Counted from the first letter of the stretch, positions 12,385 to 61,928 are shown. The stretch: DNA of 64,000 bases from Escherichia coli (GCF_045037415.1 NZ_CP173438.1); one strand, 5' to 3'. Numbers and translations: made by a program. The notes: generated by a model not told the origin, from the sequence alone.

Positions 12385-14130
12385 TCACTTTTTCGCCAGC
12401 TCCTGGTTTAATGTCCAGAGCTCCAGGCGTTCTTCGTTGCTTAAACCATGCGTGCGCTCACGAGCGATTAACTCTTCCTGGCGCAGTTCAAGCAGCGAAT
12501 CAAACATATGGTTGAGTGAGTCGGTGAAGGTTTGCTCAGCAATATTCTTATCTGCTATATCGTCCCACATCGACAGTTTTTCAAGGGTGGCAGCATTATT
12601 TGTACCACGATAGTGCTCTAAAAGTTGCCCGGTGGTCAGACCTGGCTGGGAGAGACAAGTGTTGACCAGTTCTCTGAATAAGCCAAGTCCAGGGAGCTTA
12701 TTTTCATCCAGATTCTCAAGCGGCGGGACCAACGTCGCTAATTCTGGATTTTGCACCAGCAACCCTATAAGTATACGCATGGTCGTGCGTTTTAGCTGCG
12801 GAACAGGGCGAGAAACGCCGCTCTCTGCCGCTTTTGGCATTAATCGTTCAAGCTGGCTGTCATCAAGTATGCCTAATTTGTTGCCTAATTCCTGACGAAG
12901 ATATATTCGCAGCGTTTCGCCCGGCACTTGCGATATCAGTGGCAGTGCCAGCGTACTCAAACGTGCGCGCCCGTCAGGGGTACTCAGATCAACTTGCGGC
13001 ATCAGACTGTTAAACAGAAATGCGGAGAGTGGCATCGCCTGCTCCATCCGCGCTTCAAACGCTTCTTTACCTTCTTTTCGTACCAGCGTGTCAGGGTCTT
13101 CGCCATCCGGCAAAAACATAAAGCGTAGCTGACGACCGTCTGTCATGTAAGGCAACGCCGTTTCCAGCGCTCGCCAGGCGGCATCGCGGCCTGCACGGTC
13201 GCCGTCATAACAGCAAATGACATTGTTGGTCGCGCGGAACAACAGTTGTATGTGATCGGCGGTGGTTGACGTACCTAACGACGCAACGGCGTAATTAATG
13301 CCGTATTGCGCCAGCGCCACCACGTCCATATAGCCTTCGACCACAAGCAGACGATTGGGTTCAGCGTTATCCTGCTGCGCTTCATAAAGACCGTAAAGCT
13401 GGCGGCCTTTATGGAAAATGTCCGTTTCCGGCGAGTTCAGGTATTTGGGGGTATCGTTGCCCAGCACGCGTCCGCCAAAACCAATCACCCGACCGCGTTT
13501 ATCACGAATGGGGAACATCACCCGCTCGCGGAAACGATCGTAACTGCGCCCCTGATCGTTAGTGACCAACATGCCCGCATCAATCAATGACTGGCGATTT
13601 TCTGGATTGCCGCCAAACCGCTTCAGGACGTTGTCCCAGCCGGGGGGCGCAAAACCAATCGCAAAGCGAGCGATAACCTCGTGGCTTAATCCGCGTTTTT
13701 CCAGATACTGGCGCGCAGACATGGCAACAGGTTGTTGTAAAGATTGTTGGTAAAACGTATTCAGACCGTCCATCAACTGATAAAGCGTTTGCCTCTGATG
13801 GCGCTCGATCTGGCTGGGGCCGCTGCCTGCTTCAAATGGCACTTCAAGATTGTGCATTGCTGCCAGCTCTTCGACCGTTTCGACGAACTCGAGCTTGTCG
13901 TAGTTCATCAGGAAGTCGATCGCGTTGCCGTGCGCGCCACATCCAAAGCAGTGGTAAAACTGTTTCTCACCGTTAACGGTGAATGACGGGGTTTTCTCGT
14001 TGTGGAATGGACAACACGCGTGGAAATTCTTGCCCTGCTTTTTCAGCTTCACACGGGCATCGATCAGATCGACGATGTCAGTGCGTGCCAGCAGATCATT
14101 AATGAATACGCGTGGGATTCGTCCAGCCAT
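12385..14130 (-). CDS. dnaG: DNA primase
   Basis: 581 aa ORF with N-terminal CHC2 zinc finger (CCPFHNEKTPSF...HCFGCGAHGN), TOPRIM core and C-terminal DnaB-interaction domain. Confidence 0.96.
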   Translation of the reverse strand: MAGRIPRVFINDLLARTDIVDLIDARVKLKKQGKNFHACCPFHNEKTPSFTVNGEKQFYHCFGCGAHGNAIDFLMNYDKLEFVETVEELAAMHNLEVPFEAGSGPSQIERHQRQTLYQLMDGLNTFYQQSLQQPVAMSARQYLEKRGLSHEVIARFAIGFAPPGWDNVLKRFGGNPENRQSLIDAGMLVTNDQGRSYDRFRERVMFPIRDKRGRVIGFGGRVLGNDTPKYLNSPETDIFHKGRQLYGLYEAQQDNAEPNRLLVVEGYMDVVALAQYGINYAVASLGTSTTADHIQLLFRATNNVICCYDGDRAGRDAAWRALETALPYMTDGRQLRFMFLPDGEDPDTLVRKEGKEAFEARMEQAMPLSAFLFNSLMPQVDLSTPDGRARLSTLALPLISQVPGETLRIYLRQELGNKLGILDDSQLERLMPKAAESGVSRPVPQLKRTTMRILIGLLVQNPELATLVPPLENLDENKLPGLGLFRELVNTCLSQPGLTTGQLLEHYRGTNNAATLEKLSMWDDIADKNIAEQTFTDSLNHMFDSLLELRQEELIARERTHGLSNEERLELWTLNQELAKK

Positions 14131-14240
14131 AGGCCCCGATTTTTAGCAATTCATAAACGAAAATAAGCCGCGCATTCCTTTCGGAAGCACGGCCTTACAA
14201 CTACAACTCGGTCTGATCGGAGAGCAACGCTCTCGGGGAA

Positions 14241-14495
<255 letters not shown>

Positions 14496-14693
14496 TCAAC
14501 GCCAGCTTATTTCAAAATGGTGCGGAATTTTACTGCAATTGCTGCTGCTTTGTAAAGCACCGCGGCCTTTTTTGAAAGGGACTTTTATAAGGGTGAGGAG
14601 TATACACGAGGCTTTCTCCAGGGGCGAACAAAGTTTTACATCAACCCGCATTGGTCCTACACTGCGCGGTAATAAAGCGAGGTAAAACAAGTC

Positions 14694-15707
14694 ATGCGTG
14701 TACTGGGTATTGAAACTTCCTGCGATGAAACCGGCATCGCCATTTACGACGATGAAAAAGGTTTGTTAGCCAACCAATTGTATAGTCAGGTGAAATTGCA
14801 CGCTGACTACGGCGGCGTCGTGCCTGAACTGGCCTCCCGCGATCACGTGCGTAAAACCGTACCGTTGATCCAGGAGGCGCTAAAGGAGTCTGGTTTAACG
14901 GCAAAAGACATTGATGCTGTGGCCTATACCGCAGGCCCAGGATTAGTCGGCGCACTGCTGGTTGGCGCGACCGTGGGGCGTTCTCTGGCGTTTGCCTGGG
15001 ACGTTCCGGCAATCCCGGTACATCATATGGAAGGACATCTGTTAGCGCCGATGCTGGAAGATAACCCACCGGAATTTCCGTTTGTCGCGCTGCTGGTTTC
15101 CGGCGGTCATACGCAGTTAATCAGCGTGACTGGCATTGGTCAGTACGAGCTGCTCGGCGAGTCTATCGATGATGCTGCTGGTGAAGCGTTTGATAAAACC
15201 GCGAAGCTGCTGGGGCTGGATTATCCTGGCGGACCGTTACTGTCTAAAATGGCGGCTCAGGGTACTGCCGGGCGCTTTGTTTTCCCGCGTCCGATGACCG
15301 ACCGTCCGGGGCTGGATTTCAGCTTTTCTGGTCTGAAAACCTTCGCGGCAAATACCATACGTGACAACGGCACTGACGATCAGACGCGTGCCGATATCGC
15401 CCGCGCCTTTGAAGATGCAGTGGTCGATACGTTGATGATTAAGTGTAAGCGAGCACTGGATCAGACGGGCTTTAAGCGACTGGTCATGGCAGGCGGCGTG
15501 AGTGCTAACCGCACGTTGCGGGCGAAACTGGCGGAAATGATGAAAAAACGCCGTGGCGAAGTGTTCTACGCGCGTCCGGAATTTTGTACGGATAACGGTG
15601 CGATGATCGCCTATGCCGGAATGGTGCGGTTTAAAGCAGGCGCGACGGCGGATCTCGGCGTGAGTGTGCGTCCGCGCTGGCCACTGGCAGAGTTACCGGC
15701 CGCGTAA
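14694..15707 (+). CDS. tsaD: tRNA N6-adenosine threonylcarbamoyltransferase
   Basis: 337 aa [23 protein letters not shown]... of the Kae1/TsaD family with metal-binding HxxGH motif. Confidence 0.95.
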
Positions 15708-51805: not shown

Positions 51806-53701
<1,896 letters not shown>

Positions 53702-53729
53702 TAATCCTCCCGCCAGAAGAATAAAACAT

Positions 53730-53763
53730 AGCCCGGTATACAAGTGTATACCGGGCTTTTTTG
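53730..53763. terminator. Bidirectional terminator between parE and the TonB-dependent receptor gene
   Basis: GCCCGGTATAC-AAGTG-TATACCGGGC hairpin followed by TTTTTT. Confidence 0.7.
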
Positions 53764-53764
53764 A

Positions 53765-55906
53765 TCAAAATTCCATTTTCACCGTGAATTGCACTTCACG
53801 CGGATCGCCAATCTGATTCCCCAGATTATTTGTGGCGATGGAAGAGGTGTAATACGTTTTATCAAACAGGTTTTTGACGTTTAATTGCAGTGTGACCGGA
53901 TACTGCAATTTCATTTTGTATGCGGCGAAGGCATCGGCAACAAAATAGCCTGGCAGATAATAGTCAGCCCCATTGGTTGCCGAACGACGGCTTACACCAT
54001 GTCCACCACCGCCAAATGTCAGCGTATTATTGCCTGGCATGTTATGAATATCATAGGTCAGGAATAGCGAACCGGTATGACGAGGAACATTCGGCAATGG
54101 TTTCCCTGCATAATCAGGATCCTCCAGAACCTTAGCATCGGTATAGCCGTAGCTGGCAATGATATTAATGTTTTCAGTTAATGCTCCCGCAAGGTCGACT
54201 TCTACCCCTCTTGAACGAACACGGCCTGCCGTTTTGGCGATGGTTTCATCACCAATACTTTCGGTATACAACACATTACGTTTATGGATATCAAACAGCG
54301 CAATATCTGCGGTGATACCATCGAATAGCTCGAATTTTGCCCCGACTTCGTAAGCATTAGATGATTCCGGTGGAAGATCGCCAATGTAGCTGGCAATTGA
54401 CGACTGCGGCATAAATGTTTGCGAATAATTGGCAAATAAGGATACCGATGGCGTCAGTTTGTAGACCAACCCCAGTTTGGGAGTCCATTGTTCATCGCGG
54501 CTGTCAGTATTGACATTAAAAGGACGGCCTTTACCCGCATACTGCGTGTAATACTGATAGCGGATCCCGGCGACGGCAATCCAGTTATCGGTCAGATAGA
54601 GTGCGTCCTGTGCATACGCTGAGTAGCTCTCCTGTTTGATCGTCTGATCACTGTCCGACGCCGAAACCGTTGTACATTTGCTGGTATTACCATAAACAGG
54701 GTTGTAAATATTGAAATCTTTAGCTTTTTTACAGCGAATCATATCTGTACGCAGAAGATCATAATATTCATATGACACCCCACCCAGAATCTCATTATAG
54801 AATCCGGCAATATCAACATTCCCTTGCAGATCCGCACGAGTAGCATGCATACGCTGGGTAGAGCCCTGAGTTGCATCAACACGCCGTGTCAGTGTTCCTG
54901 TCGTTGCATCATATGCGGTAACACGCGCCTGATTATCGCTGTATTTATCCTGGCTGTAGCTGTAATCAAAGCGTGCTGTCCACTGGCTATTGAGATGATA
55001 TTCTGCGTTGAGTTGCGCCAGATCGGACTGACCATCTGTAATATTAAACGGTTCGTCAAAACGTATTTTTCGATCAACGTTTACGGGCTGTTTCGTCGTA
55101 AGGTCGAAAATCGTTCCACGATCGAACGGAGTTTTATAGTCCCGATGGGAATAGAGCATGGTTACTGTTGCATTATCACCAAACCATGTGAGTGACGGGG
55201 CAATAAATGTACTGCGCTCTTTACCGAAGTTTCGCCAGTAATCTTCATCCTGCACTTCCCCGGTAAGGCGATACGCCAGCTGAGTGCCTTCAATGGGACC
55301 TGTGATATCAAGTTGCCCAGTGCCGCCACCAAAACTGGAGGAGGTGGCTGAAACCGAACCATGGAATGTTTTTTCCGGGCGCTTGGTCACGACGTTAATC
55401 AGTCCGCCAGGATCGAGAATGCCATACAGCGTGGAGGCCGGGCCTTTTAGCACTTCCACACGTTCTGTGGCGGCGTTGAAACTGCGAGGAAGTACGGTTC
55501 GCAGACCGTTGGTCATGATGGAGCCATCCCGGTTTGCGCCAAACCCACGGCGTACAAAGGCGTCCTGAGTTCCGCCTAATGTATTGGTCTGTACCACGTT
55601 ACTGACGTTATAAAGCGCCTCATCCAGCGTTGTCGCATTCTGGTTTTCCAGAACCTGATCGCTAACCGTATTGACCACCTGCGGGATATCCAGCATCGGC
55701 ATATCGGTTAATGTCGCCGTAGAGGTGCTCAGAGGTTGATAACCATCGGTTGCCTCAGTTGCGGTATTTGCATCTGCTGTAACAGTGATTGTTTCGCCAT
55801 CTTTGGTCGTTACAGAGTCTGTTGCATGAATCATCGGTGCCGCAAAAAGCAGTGAAAAGAGCGCCCGACCTTTGAGTCCTGAGAATGAAGGTGTGAACAT
55901 AGCCAT
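53765..55906 (-). CDS. fitA: TonB-dependent outer membrane siderophore receptor (fit-like)
   Basis: 713 aa ORF with signal peptide, TonB-box-like ETITVTA, plug and 22-strand barrel character, terminal aromatic residue; symbol is a tentative family assignment. Confidence 0.8.
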   Translation of the reverse strand: MAMFTPSFSGLKGRALFSLLFAAPMIHATDSVTTKDGETITVTADANTATEATDGYQPLSTSTATLTDMPMLDIPQVVNTVSDQVLENQNATTLDEALYNVSNVVQTNTLGGTQDAFVRRGFGANRDGSIMTNGLRTVLPRSFNAATERVEVLKGPASTLYGILDPGGLINVVTKRPEKTFHGSVSATSSSFGGGTGQLDITGPIEGTQLAYRLTGEVQDEDYWRNFGKERSTFIAPSLTWFGDNATVTMLYSHRDYKTPFDRGTIFDLTTKQPVNVDRKIRFDEPFNITDGQSDLAQLNAEYHLNSQWTARFDYSYSQDKYSDNQARVTAYDATTGTLTRRVDATQGSTQRMHATRADLQGNVDIAGFYNEILGGVSYEYYDLLRTDMIRCKKAKDFNIYNPVYGNTSKCTTVSASDSDQTIKQESYSAYAQDALYLTDNWIAVAGIRYQYYTQYAGKGRPFNVNTDSRDEQWTPKLGLVYKLTPSVSLFANYSQTFMPQSSIASYIGDLPPESSNAYEVGAKFELFDGITADIALFDIHKRNVLYTESIGDETIAKTAGRVRSRGVEVDLAGALTENINIIASYGYTDAKVLEDPDYAGKPLPNVPRHTGSLFLTYDIHNMPGNNTLTFGGGGHGVSRRSATNGADYYLPGYFVADAFAAYKMKLQYPVTLQLNVKNLFDKTYYTSSIATNNLGNQIGDPREVQFTVKMEF

Positions 55907-56279
55907 TTAGTCTGTTATCCCAAAAACTCGCGGATTGTCGCGAGTGAAAATTGTTTCTTATTGCTCACTAAGCACTATCCGTTTGTTATTTCGCCATCGG
56001 ATATGTAATTGAGAATCATTCAATCACGCAGTAATGTAGTAGTAAATGAGAAATAACAAAAAATTGCTACATGTGTTTTTATGAAAGGTTTATACAATTT
56101 GATTGCTTTTAATTTATTGATATTTAATGTTTTTATTTTTATGTATAAAAATATTTTACCTGTTATTTACCTTGTTTTTGTGTGGCTTTTAACTGCTTGA
56201 CTACTACATTTTGTGGCGTCAAACTCTCAAAGGAGAATGAGTTTTATTTTTGTTTGTCTTTGATTAAGTTGGCGTACAC
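55907..56279. promoter_or_regulatory. AT-rich divergent promoter region of the iron-uptake locus with candidate Fur box
   Basis: Between divergent receptor and ABC transporter genes; AATTGAGAATCATTCAAT resembles the Fur consensus GATAATGATAATCATTATC. Confidence 0.4.
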
Positions 56280-57089
56280 GTGGCACATAACGCAAAAGGG
56301 CAGGGGCTGATCCTCGACAATGTTTCTGCCGGGTATCACAAGAAAATCATTGTTGATGGTGTTTCTTTCTCCGTTCCCACAGAAAAAATGACCGTTCTGG
56401 TTGGGGCAAACGGCTGTGGAAAGTCGACGTTGCTCAGCACCATTGCACGTATCTTGCAACCTATGGGCGGTTCGATATTGCTTGATGGCAAAGCGATTCA
56501 CGAGCAACCAACGAAAGCGTTATCCCGTAGACTTGGGATCTTGCCGCAGTCGCCATTATTGCCGGAGGGCTTAACCGTTTATGAACTGGTGTCGCGTGGG
56601 CGTTTTCCCTGGCAAAATTTCATACGTCAATGGAGCGACGCCGATGAGCAGGCGGTGGAAGAGGCCCTGAAATTAACCGGTACGCAGGAGTTTGCACATT
56701 TACCTGTTGAAAAACTCTCTGGTGGGCAGCGCCAGCGTTGCTGGATTGCGATGGTGTTGGCGCAAAAGACGCCTTATATCCTGCTGGATGAACCCACAAC
56801 CTGGCTTGATTTACGTTATCAGGTTGAAATTCTTGAGTTATTACATGATTTAACGCGTCATCACGGGCGTACAGTCGTCGTGGTGTTGCATGATCTGAAT
56901 TTTGCCGTCAATTATGGCGATACGTTGATATTTTTACGCCAGGGGAAAGTGGTGCGTGTGTTGAATGAGGGGGAGCATTGCACGCCTGAACTGGTAAAAG
57001 CTGTCTTTGACGTTGATGTTCACGCATCAATAAATCCTCTGACGGGAAAGCCGTTCTTCATGCCGTTTCGTGGTGTAGAAAAAGTATGA
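56280..57089 (+). CDS. ABC transporter ATP-binding protein (iron-siderophore type)
   Basis: 269 aa ORF, GTG start, Walker A GANGCGKST, ABC signature LSGGQRQR, Walker B ILLDEP. Confidence 0.85.
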   Translation: MAHNAKGQGLILDNVSAGYHKKIIVDGVSFSVPTEKMTVLVGANGCGKSTLLSTIARILQPMGGSILLDGKAIHEQPTKALSRRLGILPQSPLLPEGLTVYELVSRGRFPWQNFIRQWSDADEQAVEEALKLTGTQEFAHLPVEKLSGGQRQRCWIAMVLAQKTPYILLDEPTTWLDLRYQVEILELLHDLTRHHGRTVVVVLHDLNFAVNYGDTLIFLRQGKVVRVLNEGEHCTPELVKAVFDVDVHASINPLTGKPFFMPFRGVEKV

Positions 57090-58069
57090 TGCGCACAGGG
57101 CTGGTTACTGTAATTTTCCTCGCCTTACTGCTGGTGGGATGCGTGGTATATCCAGGGATTGGTGCCCGATTTATTGCACCACAAACGGTGTTGCAGGCAT
57201 TTCTTCATTTTGATCCGCAAAACTTCGATCACAACGTAATTGTAAGACTCCGTTTGCCGCGTTTAGCGGCAGCATTGCTTACCGGTGCTTCTCTTGGTGT
57301 TGCTGGTGCTTTGTTGCAGGCTGTCATTCGTAACCCATTGGGGGAACCACATATTTTAGGCTTAAATGCCGGAGCCGCTCTTGCTGTCGTTGCCGCCAGT
57401 GCGCTTGGACTGGCCTTTCCGGTTGGACGCCCACTGCTGGCATCTACGGGGGGCGCGTTATTGTTCCTGTTGATATTGCTGCTTTCCTCCGCAGGGCGTT
57501 CAGGGTTAACGCCAATGAAAGTTACTTTATGCGGCGTGGCGCTATCGGCGTTCGTGTCCTCAATAACGGCTGCAATCCTGATTCTTGACGAACAAACACT
57601 GCTGGCGATGCGGACATGGCTAGCAGGTGATTTAGCGGGGCAGGATTGGGCGACGCTGGGTACGTCCGCCTGGTTTTCTCTGGGGGGATTTGTGTTAGCC
57701 CTTTACCTTGCACCCTCCCTTAACATGTTGGCACTGGGCGATCGCATGGCGCAGGGGCTGGGCGTCTCTGTACTCCGCACGCGAACATTCACCCTGCTTG
57801 CGATCGCGTTGCTCTGTGGCGCAGCCGTATCGATTGCTGGCCCCATTGGTTTTGTCGGCCTGCTAGTACCGCAGATTGTCCGGCGTCTGGTATCAGCGGA
57901 TCTGCGCGTTCTGCTCCCTCTTTCAGCTTGTGTCGGCGCGCTTTTGTTATTACTGGCAGATATTATTGCCCGGACGCTTTTCACGCCCCATGAGTTAGCG
58001 ACCGGTGTCATGACGGCGTTAGTTGGTGCGCCTGTTTTTGTCATTATGGCGACGAGGATGTTCAAATGA
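57086..58069 (+). CDS. ABC transporter permease (FecCD family)
   Basis: 327 aa polytopic ORF; 4-nt overlap with the ATPase gene. Confidence 0.85.
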   Translation: MMRTGLVTVIFLALLLVGCVVYPGIGARFIAPQTVLQAFLHFDPQNFDHNVIVRLRLPRLAAALLTGASLGVAGALLQAVIRNPLGEPHILGLNAGAALAVVAASALGLAFPVGRPLLASTGGALLFLLILLLSSAGRSGLTPMKVTLCGVALSAFVSSITAAILILDEQTLLAMRTWLAGDLAGQDWATLGTSAWFSLGGFVLALYLAPSLNMLALGDRMAQGLGVSVLRTRTFTLLAIALLCGAAVSIAGPIGFVGLLVPQIVRRLVSADLRVLLPLSACVGALLLLLADIIARTLFTPHELATGVMTALVGAPVFVIMATRMFK

Positions 58070-59115
58070 GTCGGATAATGAACGTCGGGCTACGCCCACT
58101 ACGTGTTGGTAAGTTTTCGACACTGGTGCGCCCTAAAAATCTGCTGTTGCTTGGTGGGCTGTTCCTGCTTGCGGTTGGAATACTGATATTCGGTCTGATG
58201 CAGGGTTCTTTCTCTGTTCCGGCATCGGAAGTAGGACGAGCGTTGTTTGCTCCAGAAAACGTAAGCACAGACGCACGTTATATTGTGCAGGATATTCGCT
58301 TGCCGAGAGTCATCATGGCATTGCTATGCGGGGCCATGTTAGGTATGGCAGGGGCCGCAATGCAATCCATTGCACGTAACGGCCTTGCCGATCCTGGTTT
58401 AATCGGCGTCAAAGAAGGATGTAGCGTGGCTGTGCTGTGGCTGATTTTCCAGTTTCCAATGCTGGGAATGTTCTGGCGTCCAGTGGCTGGTCTTGCTGGT
58501 GGCCTGTTGGTGGCTTTAATCGTGATTTTTTGTGCGCGCGATATTTCCCGCCCGCGATTTGTTCTGATTGGTATTGGTGTTTCCTGGTTTTTCGCCGCCG
58601 GTATCGGTGTATTTATGACCACTGCAGATGTTCGAGATGTACAAACTGCATTGATGTGGTTATCGGGAAGCCTGCATGCAGCTAACTGGATGTTAGTCGG
58701 TATTTCAGCCTGTTGGATGTTGCCAGCCGCTCTTTTATTGCTGTTCACCGCCAGGACTGCGGATATCGCTCTGCTTGGTCATCAGGTTGCAACCGGGTTA
58801 GGGGTGAATAGTTCTCGTCTGGCGTTGTTACGTGTCGCCGCACCCATAATCCTGACAGCCGTCTGCGTTTCGTGTGTTGGTAACATCGGTTTTGTCGGAT
58901 TGATAGCACCCCATATATCACGTTTTATTCTACGTGGCGGGCAGACGACATTACTGCTGGGGAGCGCGGTATCGGGGGCGTTGTTAGTTATTCTGGCGGA
59001 TAGCATTGGTCGTTTGGCTTTTTTGCCTTTGCAACTGCCTGCCGGAATCATTATCTCACTGATTGGTGGACCATTTTTTTTACTACTGCTCTGGCAGCGC
59101 AGGAACAGTTTTTAA
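58066..59115 (+). CDS. ABC transporter permease (FecCD family)
   Basis: 349 aa polytopic ORF; 4-nt overlap with the preceding permease gene. Confidence 0.85.
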   Translation: MSRIMNVGLRPLRVGKFSTLVRPKNLLLLGGLFLLAVGILIFGLMQGSFSVPASEVGRALFAPENVSTDARYIVQDIRLPRVIMALLCGAMLGMAGAAMQSIARNGLADPGLIGVKEGCSVAVLWLIFQFPMLGMFWRPVAGLAGGLLVALIVIFCARDISRPRFVLIGIGVSWFFAAGIGVFMTTADVRDVQTALMWLSGSLHAANWMLVGISACWMLPAALLLLFTARTADIALLGHQVATGLGVNSSRLALLRVAAPIILTAVCVSCVGNIGFVGLIAPHISRFILRGGQTTLLLGSAVSGALLVILADSIGRLAFLPLQLPAGIIISLIGGPFFLLLLWQRRNSF

Positions 59116-59125
59116 CGGGAGTTAT

Positions 59126-60073
59126 ATGCGTTTATTTTTTTCTCTGCTGATACTGTTGTCATTTTTTTCCCGTGCAACAGAACCTGTTCAGGTATTTACT
59201 GATGATTTAGGGCGCAAAGTCACTGTTCCTGCTCATCCAAAGAGAATTGTCTCTTTACACGATCTTGATATCACTATTCCTCTGATTGAGCTCGGTGTAC
59301 CTCCTGTCGCCAGCCACGGGCGAACTCGGCCTGACGGTAGCCATTTCATTCGATCTGGCGCGTTATTGACAGGTGTCGACTTTGATAATTCATCGATCGC
59401 CTTTATTGGTACCGCTGATATTGATATTGAAGCGATTGTGGCGGCAAAGCCTGACTTGATCATCACAGAACCGACCCGTAATACGCCCATTGAACAACTT
59501 GAAAAAATTGCGCCCACGGTGAGCATTGATCATCTCAAAGGGGGCGCGCCAGAAATCTATCGCAAGCTGGCAGAACTTACAGGAACGCAGTCGCAGCTGG
59601 CGATACTTGAACGCCGCTATCAGGCACAAATCAATGCGCTGAAGGCGACGCTGGACAGCCAAAAAATAACGGTATCGGTGATTCAGGCAAACCAGGGAAA
59701 AATTAATGTGATGCATAGCTATCATTCGCTGGGACGGGTATTACGCGATGCTGGTTTTCGTTTTCCGCCGCTGATTGAGAGCATTCCTGAAGGTGGGCGA
59801 ATGGATGTGAGCGCGGAGCGTTTACCTGAACTGGATGCCGATTTTGTTTTTGCAACCTGGCGCGGTGACACCGGTGGTAAACCTCAGGATGAGCTGGCAG
59901 CAATGGAAAAAGTCATGCCGGGATGGTGTCAGTTTCTGACTGCCTGTCGTTCCGGGCGTTATGTGCTGATTTCTCGTGAAGAGGCAATTTCTAACTCCTT
60001 TGCATCTCTGGGGCTGATGGCTGCGCAGATACAATCACAAATTGCAGGGCGACCTCTACCGGAGGCTAAATGA
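59126..60073 (+). CDS. Periplasmic siderophore-binding protein (class III substrate-binding protein)
   Basis: Track ORF starts at 59063; signal peptide MRLFFSLLILLSFFSRA begins at codon 22, preceded by an SD. Confidence 0.8.
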   Translation: MRLFFSLLILLSFFSRATEPVQVFTDDLGRKVTVPAHPKRIVSLHDLDITIPLIELGVPPVASHGRTRPDGSHFIRSGALLTGVDFDNSSIAFIGTADIDIEAIVAAKPDLIITEPTRNTPIEQLEKIAPTVSIDHLKGGAPEIYRKLAELTGTQSQLAILERRYQAQINALKATLDSQKITVSVIQANQGKINVMHSYHSLGRVLRDAGFRFPPLIESIPEGGRMDVSAERLPELDADFVFATWRGDTGGKPQDELAAMEKVMPGWCQFLTACRSGRYVLISREEAISNSFASLGLMAAQIQSQIAGRPLPEAK

Positions 60074-60957
60074 TCCAGAAAGATAAAGTGCGGGTTGATA
60101 TTTTTGGTGAGCGTTTTCGCACTCGCGCGAGTCAGTTAACGCCTGGGTTAAGAGTTGTCGCCAGCTACATTAATGAGCATCGTGAAGTGGTACTCGAGCA
60201 AACGGCGATGGAAATTGCGGCCACGTTGAACACTTCCGATGCCACAGTTATCAGGGCTATACAGGCCCTGGGGTTTGCCGGGCTGCGTGATCTGAAACGC
60301 ACTCTGGAACAGTGGCTTGGTCCAGCCCTTAGTTCCAGCGAAAAGATGTCTACGACGGTGAGTAACTTGACGAGCGATGTTAACACCGCAATCGACTTTG
60401 TTCTTGAAGGGCATTTGTATACCTGTAATGTCCTGTCAGAGCCTGAAAACCGCCACGCGCTTGCGCAAGCTGTAGCGTTGTTGGTGCAGGCACGGCAAGT
60501 CGCAATTTTTGGCATTGGCGCTTCGGGTATTCTGGCGGACTATACCGCACGACTATTCAACCGCATAGGTTTGCCTGCCACGGCACTAAACCGTACGGGT
60601 ATTGGCCTTGCCGAGCAACTGATCGCGCTTCAACGTGGCGATGTTCTGATCATGATGGCGCAAAAATCTGCGCACCGGGAAGGGCTGACAACGCTTCGTG
60701 AGGCGAGGCGGCTGGGGATCCCTGTTATTTTGCTGACAAACGCGCTGGATTCACGTTTTAGCAAAGACGCCAGTATCGTGATTCATGTTCCGCGCGGGGA
60801 TGAAAAAGGGAAAACGCCGCTACATGGTACGGTATTGTTGTGTCTGGAAATGATTGTCTGGTCGGTAGCTTCCGCAGTGCCGCAGCGTGCGGTTAAAACC
60901 ATTAAGCGAATTAACGATTTCCATCGAGGACTGAAAACGGGAAGAAAGAATGGCTAA
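60070..60957 (+). CDS. fitR: RpiR-family transcriptional regulator (N-terminal HTH plus SIS sugar-phosphate-binding domain)
   Basis: 295 aa ORF; HTH_6-like N-terminus and SIS-type GIGASG fold; start overlaps the binding-protein gene stop; symbol is a tentative family assignment. Confidence 0.8.
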   Translation: MIQKDKVRVDIFGERFRTRASQLTPGLRVVASYINEHREVVLEQTAMEIAATLNTSDATVIRAIQALGFAGLRDLKRTLEQWLGPALSSSEKMSTTVSNLTSDVNTAIDFVLEGHLYTCNVLSEPENRHALAQAVALLVQARQVAIFGIGASGILADYTARLFNRIGLPATALNRTGIGLAEQLIALQRGDVLIMMAQKSAHREGLTTLREARRLGIPVILLTNALDSRFSKDASIVIHVPRGDEKGKTPLHGTVLLCLEMIVWSVASAVPQRAVKTIKRINDFHRGLKTGRKNG

Positions 60958-60967
60958 TCTGGGCTGA

Positions 60968-60995
60968 GACCGGTAGCAGCACCGGCCTCTTTTTA
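60968..60995. terminator. Terminator between the regulator gene and ygiN
   Basis: GACCGGT-AGCAGC-ACCGGCC hairpin followed by TCTTTTT. Confidence 0.55.
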
Positions 60996-61001
60996 GAAAT
61001 G

Positions 61002-61316
61002 TCAAAGCCCCGGCTGCAGGATACGAATATTCATCTCCAGCACGTCACCTTTTACGGCTTCGCTATATGCTTTCATGTGCGGGGTTTGCAGATGCGCTTC
61101 AAGATGCGCGATGCTTTCCCACTGCTCAATCATCACGATAGAATCCGGTGCCATAGACTGGAAACTCACGCCAGCAGCGCAATCCACCATTGGCGCATAG
61201 CCGTGGCAACCTTCTTCTTTCAGTACGGTTGGAACGATTTTAGCAAACTGATCCAACACTGCCTGACGGTGATGTTGACCAGGACGAGTACGAATTTCTG
61301 CGATTACTGTAATCAT
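61002..61316 (-). CDS. ygiN: Quinol monooxygenase (ActVA-Orf6/ABM family)
   Basis: 104 aa ORF MITVIAEIRTRPGQHHRQAVLDQFAKIVPTVLKEEGCHGYAPMVD... Confidence 0.9.
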   Translation of the reverse strand: MITVIAEIRTRPGQHHRQAVLDQFAKIVPTVLKEEGCHGYAPMVDCAAGVSFQSMAPDSIVMIEQWESIAHLEAHLQTPHMKAYSEAVKGDVLEMNIRILQPGL

Positions 61317-61346
61317 GGTTAACTCCTTCTAAAGCCAGAGCTCTAG

Positions 61347-61928
61347 TTAACCAAAAATTTCCACAAGATGCTTGCGATATTCTTCAGTATAGCGGGGAAC
61401 ATCAGGCATTTTTATCACGTCATTAGCGATAAATGTCGGCAGCGGTTCCATGCCAAGGAATTGGTTTGCTTTATGGAACGGCAGGTACACACCGTCAACA
61501 CCAACGCCGTGGAAGAACTGATCTTTTTCGGTGAAGGCTTCCATTGGTGCGTTCCAGGTCAGAGAAAGCATATATTTTTTGCCCTGTACCAGGCCGCCGG
61601 AACCGTATTTTTTTGATGGATCTTTGCGGGTACGACCATCGCTGGCATACAGAGTCCCGTGACCTTCGGTGAATACATCATCAATATATTTTTTCACTGT
61701 CCACGGCGCGCCCATCCACCAGCCAGGCATCTGCCAGATCACCACATCAGCCCAGAGAAAGTTTTGTACTTCCGCTTTGACATCGTAGTCGCTGTCGGCG
61801 CGAACAATGCGGACATCATGCCCGAGGTCGCGCAGTGTGCCATCCGCGACTTCGGTCAGGGTGTCGTTCAGTTGACCATTGGAGTGGGCGAATTTTTTCG
61901 CGCCGTTGATAATCAGGATGTTGCTCAT
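61347..61928 (-). CDS. mdaB: NADPH:quinone oxidoreductase (flavodoxin-like)
   Basis: 193 aa form starting MSNILIINGAKKFAHSNGQLN (codon 53 of the track ORF). Confidence 0.9.
   Translation of the reverse strand: MSNILIINGAKKFAHSNGQLNDTLTEVADGTLRDLGHDVRIVRADSDYDVKAEVQNFLWADVVIWQMPGWWMGAPWTVKKYIDDVFTEGHGTLYASDGRTRKDPSKKYGSGGLVQGKKYMLSLTWNAPMEAFTEKDQFFHGVGVDGVYLPFHKANQFLGMEPLPTFIANDVIKMPDVPRYTEEYRKHLVEIFG

Follow-up and report, generated by a model that had tools for sequence, protein, structure and literature searches.

The window analyzed here is a stretch of 64,000 nucleotides from Escherichia coli (GCF_045037415.1, NZ_CP173438.1), and between its core genes parE and ygiN, at positions 53765–60957, lie six genes: fitA for a TonB-dependent receptor and, divergent from it, genes for an ATPase (fitB), two permeases (fitC and fitD), a binding protein (fitE) and a regulator (fitR). 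A preliminary description of the sequence had called this block fit-like, and the open reading frames (ORFs) and their NCBIfam and Pfam families agree with the gene arrangement that it gave. The resemblance turns out to be identity: the block is the published E. coli fit locus itself, fitA / fitBCDE-fitR. The first description of fit reportedly came from Ouyang and Isaacson, in Infection and Immunity in 2006. For strain i484, a receptor gene fitA divergent from the fitB ATPase, the fitC and fitD permeases, the fitE binding protein and a fitR regulator with helix-turn-helix (HTH) and SIS domains are set out by Ouyang and Isaacson (Open Microbiol J 2008; PMC2593036), together with the fit primers. 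When mapped on the window, all 18 published fit primers were placed in the expected genes and on the expected strands, 17 of them exactly and one with a single mismatch, and primers for fepA, gst and polA, used as controls, found no placement there. FitE matches PDB entries 3BE5 and 3BE6 over residues 19–315 of 315, that is, over the whole mature chain (E = 2.2e-195). It is because of the primer mapping and the match of FitE to 3BE5 that we speak of the fit system itself; gene content, order and orientation are identical to those of i484, and the only difference seen, the one primer mismatch, is strain-level variation. The interval of the preliminary description is 7,193 bp long, the same length as region GR22, a "fit operon" region of strain BEN2908 described in 2026 as common to extraintestinal pathogenic and adherent-invasive E. 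coli and not present in MG1655 (PMC12928451). The identity of the locus is already known, its genetics, regulation, crystal structure and epidemiology all being published, and the additions of the present analysis are small: candidate operator and Fur sites, the synteny across genera and the description of an insertion site with four alleles.

The left core flank is parE, the gene of topoisomerase IV subunit B (51809–53701, plus strand; TIGR01055, 1249 bits against a cut-off of 723, with RefSeq annotation in related genomes). In the left junction (53702–53764), a terminator scan of both strands found a bidirectional hairpin with a 12-bp stem at 53730–53757, common to parE and fitA and also scored as an inverted repeat. 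On the minus strand, fitA (53765–55906) encodes an outer-membrane TonB-dependent siderophore receptor of 713 amino acids (TIGR01783), with the published primers for quantitative polymerase chain reaction at 55086–55162. The divergent fitA/fitB promoter region (55907–56279) is 373 bp long with a GC content of 0.30, and the published "fit promoter" primers, at 55928–55949 and 56263–56286, bracket it. The remaining fit genes are all on the plus strand: fitB (56280–57089), an ABC (ATP-binding cassette) transporter ATPase whose best NCBIfam matches are FecE, FepC and FhuC, with a GTG start as in RefSeq and primers at 56437–56523; fitC (57086–58069) and fitD (58078–59115, RefSeq start), two FecCD-family permeases identified by NCBIfam and Pfam and by the primers; fitE (59126–60073), a periplasmic class III siderophore-binding protein with the signal peptide MRLFFSLLILLSFFSRA and primers at 59673–59744; and fitR (60070–60957), an auto-repressor of the RpiR family with HTH_6 and SIS domains by Pfam, whose cloning primer starts exactly at 60070 and whose start and stop both coincide with cloning primers. 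The right junction (60958–61001) holds a second terminator hairpin, at 60970–60985 and followed by a T-tract, found by the same scan; beyond it come ygiN, the right core flank (61002–61316, minus strand; a putative quinol monooxygenase, annotated by RefSeq at the homologous position), and then mdaB.

The start/stop overlaps that the preliminary description had taken as a sign of translational coupling are only partly there. The start of fitC overlaps the stop of fitB, and that of fitR the stop of fitE, in both cases as ATGA; for fitC and fitD an overlap is possible, as an alternative ATG at 58066 overlaps the fitC stop and the RefSeq start at 58078 leaves a gap of 8 nt. The overlap of fitD and fitE falls away: a fitE start at 59063 is an artefact of a TTG ORF start, and the true start is the ATG at 59126, 10 nt past the fitD stop, with a GGGAG Shine–Dalgarno sequence and the signal peptide behind it.

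As a whole protein, FitA scores 374.1 bits with the TonB-dependent siderophore receptor model TIGR01783, against a cut-off of 223.5. Its N-terminus carries a signal peptide ending ...MIHA|TD and then the TonB box ETITVTA; an N-terminal signalling domain of the FecA type is missing, and the alignment to FoxA begins after FoxA's own signalling domain. FitA stays under every NCBIfam equivalog cut-off, with 230 bits against 803 for FhuA, 166 against 1300 for FoxA, 161 against 666 for FhuE, 65 against 493 for the FepA family, 153 against 686 for Fiu and 42 against 745 for CirA. Judged by these scores, it is not an orthologue of the core receptors FhuA, FepA, FoxA and FhuE, and the receptor is distinct from FhuA and FepA, which agrees with the preliminary description. 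The nearest solved structures, namely, FoxA, CntO, an enantio-pyochelin (FptA-like) receptor and FhuA, reach only 150–170 bits. By its family, FitA would be a TonB-energised gated channel that imports a ferric chelate across the outer membrane and hands it to FitE in the periplasm; FitE would then pass the chelate to a heterodimer of the FitC and FitD permeases, powered by the FitB ATPase. These steps are assigned from sequence and family membership, which counts against the model.

Fit works like uptake of the Fhu and FoxA type without being their orthologue, and all features tested place it in the fit system. It shares their architecture and energy coupling, with a TonB-dependent gated barrel, a class III binding protein, a FecCD-type permease and an ATPase, and Fhu and FoxA are the nearest characterised sequence relatives, yet FitA is only a distant paralogue; Fhu has the fused permease FhuB, whereas fit has two separate permease genes and a cytoplasmic repressor of its own. 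The Fec system (FecA with FecIR) is like fit an E. coli iron uptake system that has a dedicated regulator besides Fur (PMC2593036). Fec, however, signals from the cell surface, through the N-terminal extension of FecA, to an extracytoplasmic function (ECF) sigma factor; the 713-residue FitA lacks this extension, and fit is regulated by an RpiR/SIS repressor in place of the surface signalling.

Iron depletion induces both divergent fit promoters, and a fur mutation de-represses them, fitA by 23-fold; both are repressed when FitR is overexpressed and de-repressed when fitR is knocked out; FitR in purified form shifts a fragment of the fitA–fitB spacer by electrophoretic mobility shift assay; and the effects of Fur and FitR are independent, with 52-fold de-repression in the double mutant (PMC2593036). 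Iron limitation would lift the repression by Fur, and FitR, acting on the shared intergenic region, would add a second, independent layer. As of 2008, neither the Fur nor the FitR sites had been located exactly (PMC2593036). To our alignment of the fitA–fitB spacer, 15 taxa from about 11 genera, Escherichia to Erwinia and Affinibrenneria, contributed sequences: the mean column identity is 46%, yet four blocks are invariant or nearly so. One motif, TTKACTACTACAT, occurs in two inverted copies, both in this spacer and the sole matches in the 64-kb window, where 0.09 would be expected; it recurs in 37 of the 47 loci examined, always in the fitA–fitB spacer and nowhere else in those loci. Copy 1, TTTACTACTACAT (56034–56046, minus strand), is invariant in the alignment and covers a putative −35 element of fitA, TTTACT, followed by a 17-nt spacer ending in TGn and the −10 element TTGAAT. 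Copy 2, TTGACTACTACAT (56197–56209, plus strand), is likewise invariant and covers a putative −35 element of fitB, TTGACT, with a 17-nt spacer and the −10 element CAAACT at 56220–56225; both promoter assignments are read from the alignment. Two Fur-box-like blocks lie on the outer sides. TGTAATTGAGAATCATTCAATCA (56004–56026), invariant among the 15 taxa, overlaps the putative extended −10 element (TGnTTGAAT) of the fitA promoter, and GGAGAATGAGTTTTATTTTTG (56232–56252), nearly invariant, is found downstream of the putative −10 element of fitB.

We propose the inverted TTKACTACTACAT pair as a candidate FitR operator, each copy a putative half-site at which binding would occlude a −35 region; the reasons are that the motif overlaps both −35 elements, that it is conserved and that the recognition helix of FitR, TSDATV(I/V)RA, is nearly invariant across the aligned genera. 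The outer blocks TGTAATTGAGAATCATTCAATCA and GGAGAATGAGTTTTATTTTTG are candidate Fur sites. Some observations pull the other way. Against the 19-bp Fur consensus, the two blocks match at only 12 positions (TGTAATTGAGAATCATTCAATCA) and 12–13 positions (GGAGAATGAGTTTTATTTTTG), and 27 sites elsewhere in the window score at least 13; since so many sites match the consensus as well, the assignment to Fur is based on the invariance across genera and not on the score. A generic sigma-70 scan reported no promoter in the fitA–fitB spacer, and TTKACTACTACAT could instead be a conserved part of the promoters or be bound by a different factor.

In FitR, Pfam finds HTH_6 at residues 15–81 (E = 1.9e-9) and SIS at residues 138–247 (E = 1.3e-13), and the solved structures of the RpiR family are matched with E = 3e-15. 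The domain architecture is that of the phosphosugar-responsive repressors RpiR, MurR and HexR, and so is the first SIS loop, GIGASG, which is canonical and conserved. That family governs sugar metabolism, whereas FitR governs an iron uptake operon, and its second SIS loop differs: residues 196–204 read AQKS(A/P)HREG in all orthologues examined (L005–L043), against SQSGRS in a HexR-like structure. The difference suggests an effector pocket specific to the FitR family.

Turning to the site, parE and ygiN of MG1655 and of strain HS are convergent and only 47 bp apart; the segment that stands in place of these 47 bp in the window is 53702–61001, 7,300 bp. The preliminary description was right that the two genes are neighbours in K-12, which lacks fit at this junction. 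Of 5,425 complete E. coli genomes, the empty junction of the K-12 type is found in 3,268, fit in 1,870 and, in 409, an unrelated occupant of the same site, an 8.3-kb cassette encoding a DUF2608 protein, a KdgM porin, a phytase-like esterase, a carbohydrate kinase, a SIS protein, an ADP-ribosylglycohydrolase, a GntR regulator and an MFS transporter; by inclusion–exclusion, about 120 genomes, such as that of strain MS 200-1, carry the cassette and fit in tandem. In the loci compared, the cassette lies at the parE/ygiN site of other E. coli (3693–12022 in L044, 9077–17407 in L045 and 9501–17787 in L047), and strain L046 keeps a remnant of it truncated by IS1. Clone D i2, which has only fit, and MS 200-1, which has the tandem, share the same ParE and YgiN proteins, and another ParE/YgiN pair accompanies both the empty site of HS and the cassette-only allele. 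Judged by these flank haplotypes, fit and the cassette segregate independently. The tandem allele of MS 200-1 has the same fitA-proximal hairpin as the window, and its fitE (L047, 23256–24203) has an internal stop and is annotated as a pseudogene; fit is probably non-functional in that strain.

Terminators mark the junctions of these alleles. The ygiN-proximal one, 60970–60985 in the window, is intact in all cargo-bearing alleles; because it is also present in the cassette-only allele, the right-junction hairpin is part of the ygiN flank. In the K-12 spacer it survives as a truncated copy, and that spacer has, in addition, a match of 13 out of 14 nt to the start of the fitA-proximal terminator. 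The 47-bp spacer is, on its sequence, a probable deletion scar. A one-step deletion of the fit-only allele was tried as its origin and rejected, the predicted junction matching no further than GCCCGGT; the spacer is similar to portions of two alleles, and extra small indels are needed for an origin by deletion. It also speaks against the scar that the likeness of the spacer to the other junctions comes down to stretches of only 13–17 nt.

About 1 kb from fit, between mdaB and ygiZ, lies another strain-variable segment. The block at 62179–63371 (plus strand) consists of two genes of low GC content (0.33–0.34, and 0.26–0.27 at third codon positions) that encode an orphan Hcp/TssD type VI secretion tube protein (TIGR03344, 199 bits) and a protein of 245 amino acids without a family match. 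It is also found in clone D i2 and MS 200-1 and is missing from HS and K-12, and O157:H7 has neither the block nor ygiZ; it is a second small strain-variable insertion.

The preliminary description found no integrase, insertion sequence (IS) element or tRNA at the borders and left the route of acquisition unclear. Our checks confirm the observation: no tRNA was found by ARAGORN, no flanking direct or inverted repeats at the fit borders, no IS, transposase or integrase genes in the fit block among the ORFs or the annotation and no Rfam families at 53000–64000. The picture of an acquired island that this description implied is, on the other hand, probably to be reversed. The GC content of the fit block is ordinary, 0.491 against 0.502 for the window. 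Compared with O157:H7, the region is collinear without indels, and the number of synonymous substitutions per synonymous site (dS) is 0.06–0.14 in the fit genes and 0.04–0.16 in the flanks; compared with a cryptic Escherichia lineage (MOD1-EC7003), the values are 0.16–0.37 and 0.08–0.44. Against Enterobacter and Lelliottia, the proportion of differing synonymous sites (pS) of fit is saturated at 0.65–0.83, at least as high as the 0.48–0.63 of the flanks. One FitA scan of species-representative genomes returned 39 loci, and the whole six-gene cluster occurs in Enterobacter, Lelliottia, Silvania, Huaxiibacter, Citrobacter, Kosakonia, Kluyvera, Yokenella, Erwinia, Pantoea and Affinibrenneria. The order parE / fitA...fitR / ygiN-mdaB is kept as well in Enterobacter, Lelliottia and a related metagenome-assembled genome (L009, L010, L025, L028, L037 and L038). 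The fit locus is not a recent mobile island and carries none of the marks of one; we attribute the lack of integrase, IS and tRNA to its age.

A recently acquired genomic island that has since lost the marks of its mobile element would account for the patchy presence of fit, which only 1,870 of 5,426 complete genomes carry and which K-12 and HS lack, and for its enrichment in pathogenic B2 strains (PMC9409007; PMC5907654). This origin is nevertheless very improbable: border repeats, integrase, IS and tRNA are all missing and the GC content is unremarkable; the synonymous divergence of fit equals that of the flanking core genes across B2-like, O157:H7 and cryptic-clade Escherichia, with no indels; Enterobacter and Lelliottia have the same genes at this very site, with dS saturated; and the sole match in a plasmid collection (PLSDB NZ_CP134663.1) is a 4.9-Mb record, evidently a chromosome. 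More serious, though still unlikely in our judgement, is an ancestral empty site that fit entered early in Escherichia, from an Enterobacter-like donor and by recombination in parE and ygiN/mdaB, before it spread between phylogroups by the same means. The protein identities speak for it: FitA of E. coli is 89–90% identical to that of Enterobacter and only 82–83% to that of Citrobacter, and only the Enterobacter group shares the site. From the species tree, such an order, Enterobacter closer than Citrobacter, would not be expected. The FitA scan found no match in the genomes representing E. albertii, E. fergusonii, Salmonella and Klebsiella, so that vertical descent from a common ancestor of Escherichia and Enterobacter needs several independent losses. 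These absences and the order of identities weigh against long residency at the site. In favour of an early entry are also the four alleles, evidence that the site clearly exchanges cargo, and the junction-side parE, which is unusually divergent between fit-positive strains (dS 0.158 vs. 0.037 for yqiA). What holds us back is that the synonymous sites of fit are saturated between E. coli and Enterobacter, and no less so than the flanks, which puts the age of any transfer near that of the genera; that the cryptic Escherichia lineage has fit with the same junction sequence and a flank-like dS; and that the truncated ygiN-proximal terminator of the K-12 spacer, intact in the three cargo alleles, looks like a deletion scar. 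We prefer another reading and consider it likely: the presence or absence of fit in E. coli would be an old, long-standing polymorphism, the site a recombination hotspot, and the spread of the alleles a matter of homologous recombination in the core genes on either side, with the empty state of K-12 most likely a deletion.

Further variation was seen around the left junction. In the comparison of parE (51809–53701) with loci L004 and L006, the dS of 0.158 is that against O157:H7, and the upstream yqiA and cpdA have 0.037 and 0.059; the divergence of parE is consistent with recombination tracts that end near the hotspot. In Enterobacter, the parE–fitA spacers (L007, L009, L011, L013, L014 and L039) contain palindromes that resemble repetitive extragenic palindromic (REP) elements, such as CCCTCTCCCCAAAGGGGAGAGGG, and in three species (L008, L012 and L035) a further 3.6–6.9 kb lies between fitA and parE; given these palindromes and extra inserts, the parE–fitA junction is variable outside E. 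coli, too.

What Fit imports is harder to say. The 2006 description of fit is said not to have found ferrichrome to be a substrate. Homology of FitA (to FoxA and FhuA) and of FitE (to YfiY and FhuD) leans towards hydroxamate or carboxylate–hydroxamate ligands, and genes for siderophore biosynthesis were found beside fit in none of the genera inspected, the Citrobacter and Kluyvera neighbours included. Since the relatives handle hydroxamate and carboxylate siderophores and no biosynthesis genes accompany fit, the ligand is most likely a siderophore made by other organisms. The published statements differ: the substrate is called unknown, enterobactin not being the substrate (PMC5907654), FitA is described only as having domains like those of ferrichrome receptors (PMC9409007), and a later paper paraphrases the 2006 work as uptake of Fe2+, Co2+ and Cd2+ (PMC12928451). 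Of the label "ferrichrome-type" in the preliminary description, the homology to proteins of the FhuA, FoxA and FhuD type stands; ferrichrome as the ligand is unproven, given that the literature calls the substrate unknown.

A narrower claim, that fit is a second ferrichrome or hydroxamate system redundant with FhuA-FhuBCD, strikes us as doubtful. It can call on the NCBIfam ranking of FitA, in which FhuA and ferrioxamine receptors come best after a generic subfamily model and the unnamed receptor model NF010651, and on FoxA and FhuA being among the best solved relatives; on the TonB box ETITVTA, which we take to resemble that of FhuA; on FitE, whose nearest solved relatives beyond FitE itself are YfiY and FhuD-type hydroxamate binders; on the ferrichrome-receptor domains that one paper gives to FitA (PMC9409007); and on Citrobacter, where fit adjoins foxA. 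Yet FitA falls far under the FhuA, FoxA and FhuE cut-offs, the literature treats the substrate as an unknown (PMC5907654), and the Fhu system, unlike fit, has no dedicated RpiR/SIS repressor. In Citrobacter (L018–L020, around 12958–15066), the fit cluster is not at parE/ygiN, and its neighbour is a bona fide foxA (NF047944, 1403 bits against 1300).

The second SIS loop of FitR invites one more idea, which we rate as quite improbable: the Fit ligand may be no classical siderophore, and instead a chelate of iron with some sugar-derived or phosphorylated compound, for which FitR would be the cytoplasmic sensor. If this were true, the inverted TTKACTACTACAT sites would form a ligand-gated operator that adds induction by the substrate to the control by Fur. 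In an Erwinia sp. (L032, 2600–5666), three extra genes lie between fitE and fitR, for a PepSY_TM membrane protein and two PstS-like proteins with a PBP fold, and in Affinibrenneria and Pantoea coffeiphila (L034 and L042), too, a gap of about 3 kb separates fitE and fitR. Proteins of the PepSY_TM class are known elsewhere as ferric-siderophore reductases. The extra genes of Erwinia, and those that Pantoea may share, would fit a phosphorylated ligand and may bear on the release of iron or the nature of the ligand.

Overall, the combined reading, a fit locus with the uptake mechanism and the FitR and Fur control outlined above, an old resident of the parE/ygiN site that K-12 has most likely lost, is in our view very probably correct. 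As an accessory iron-uptake system, fit is well recognised; extraintestinal and adherent-invasive E. coli are enriched in it, and there is a proposal to use fitA as their marker gene. Its correct annotation is useful and no news. The candidate operator and the comparison across genera offer handles on what Fit imports and on what FitR senses, and the parE/ygiN site with its four alleles gives an example of how accessory modules without mobility genes can persist and move through recombination in their flanks.

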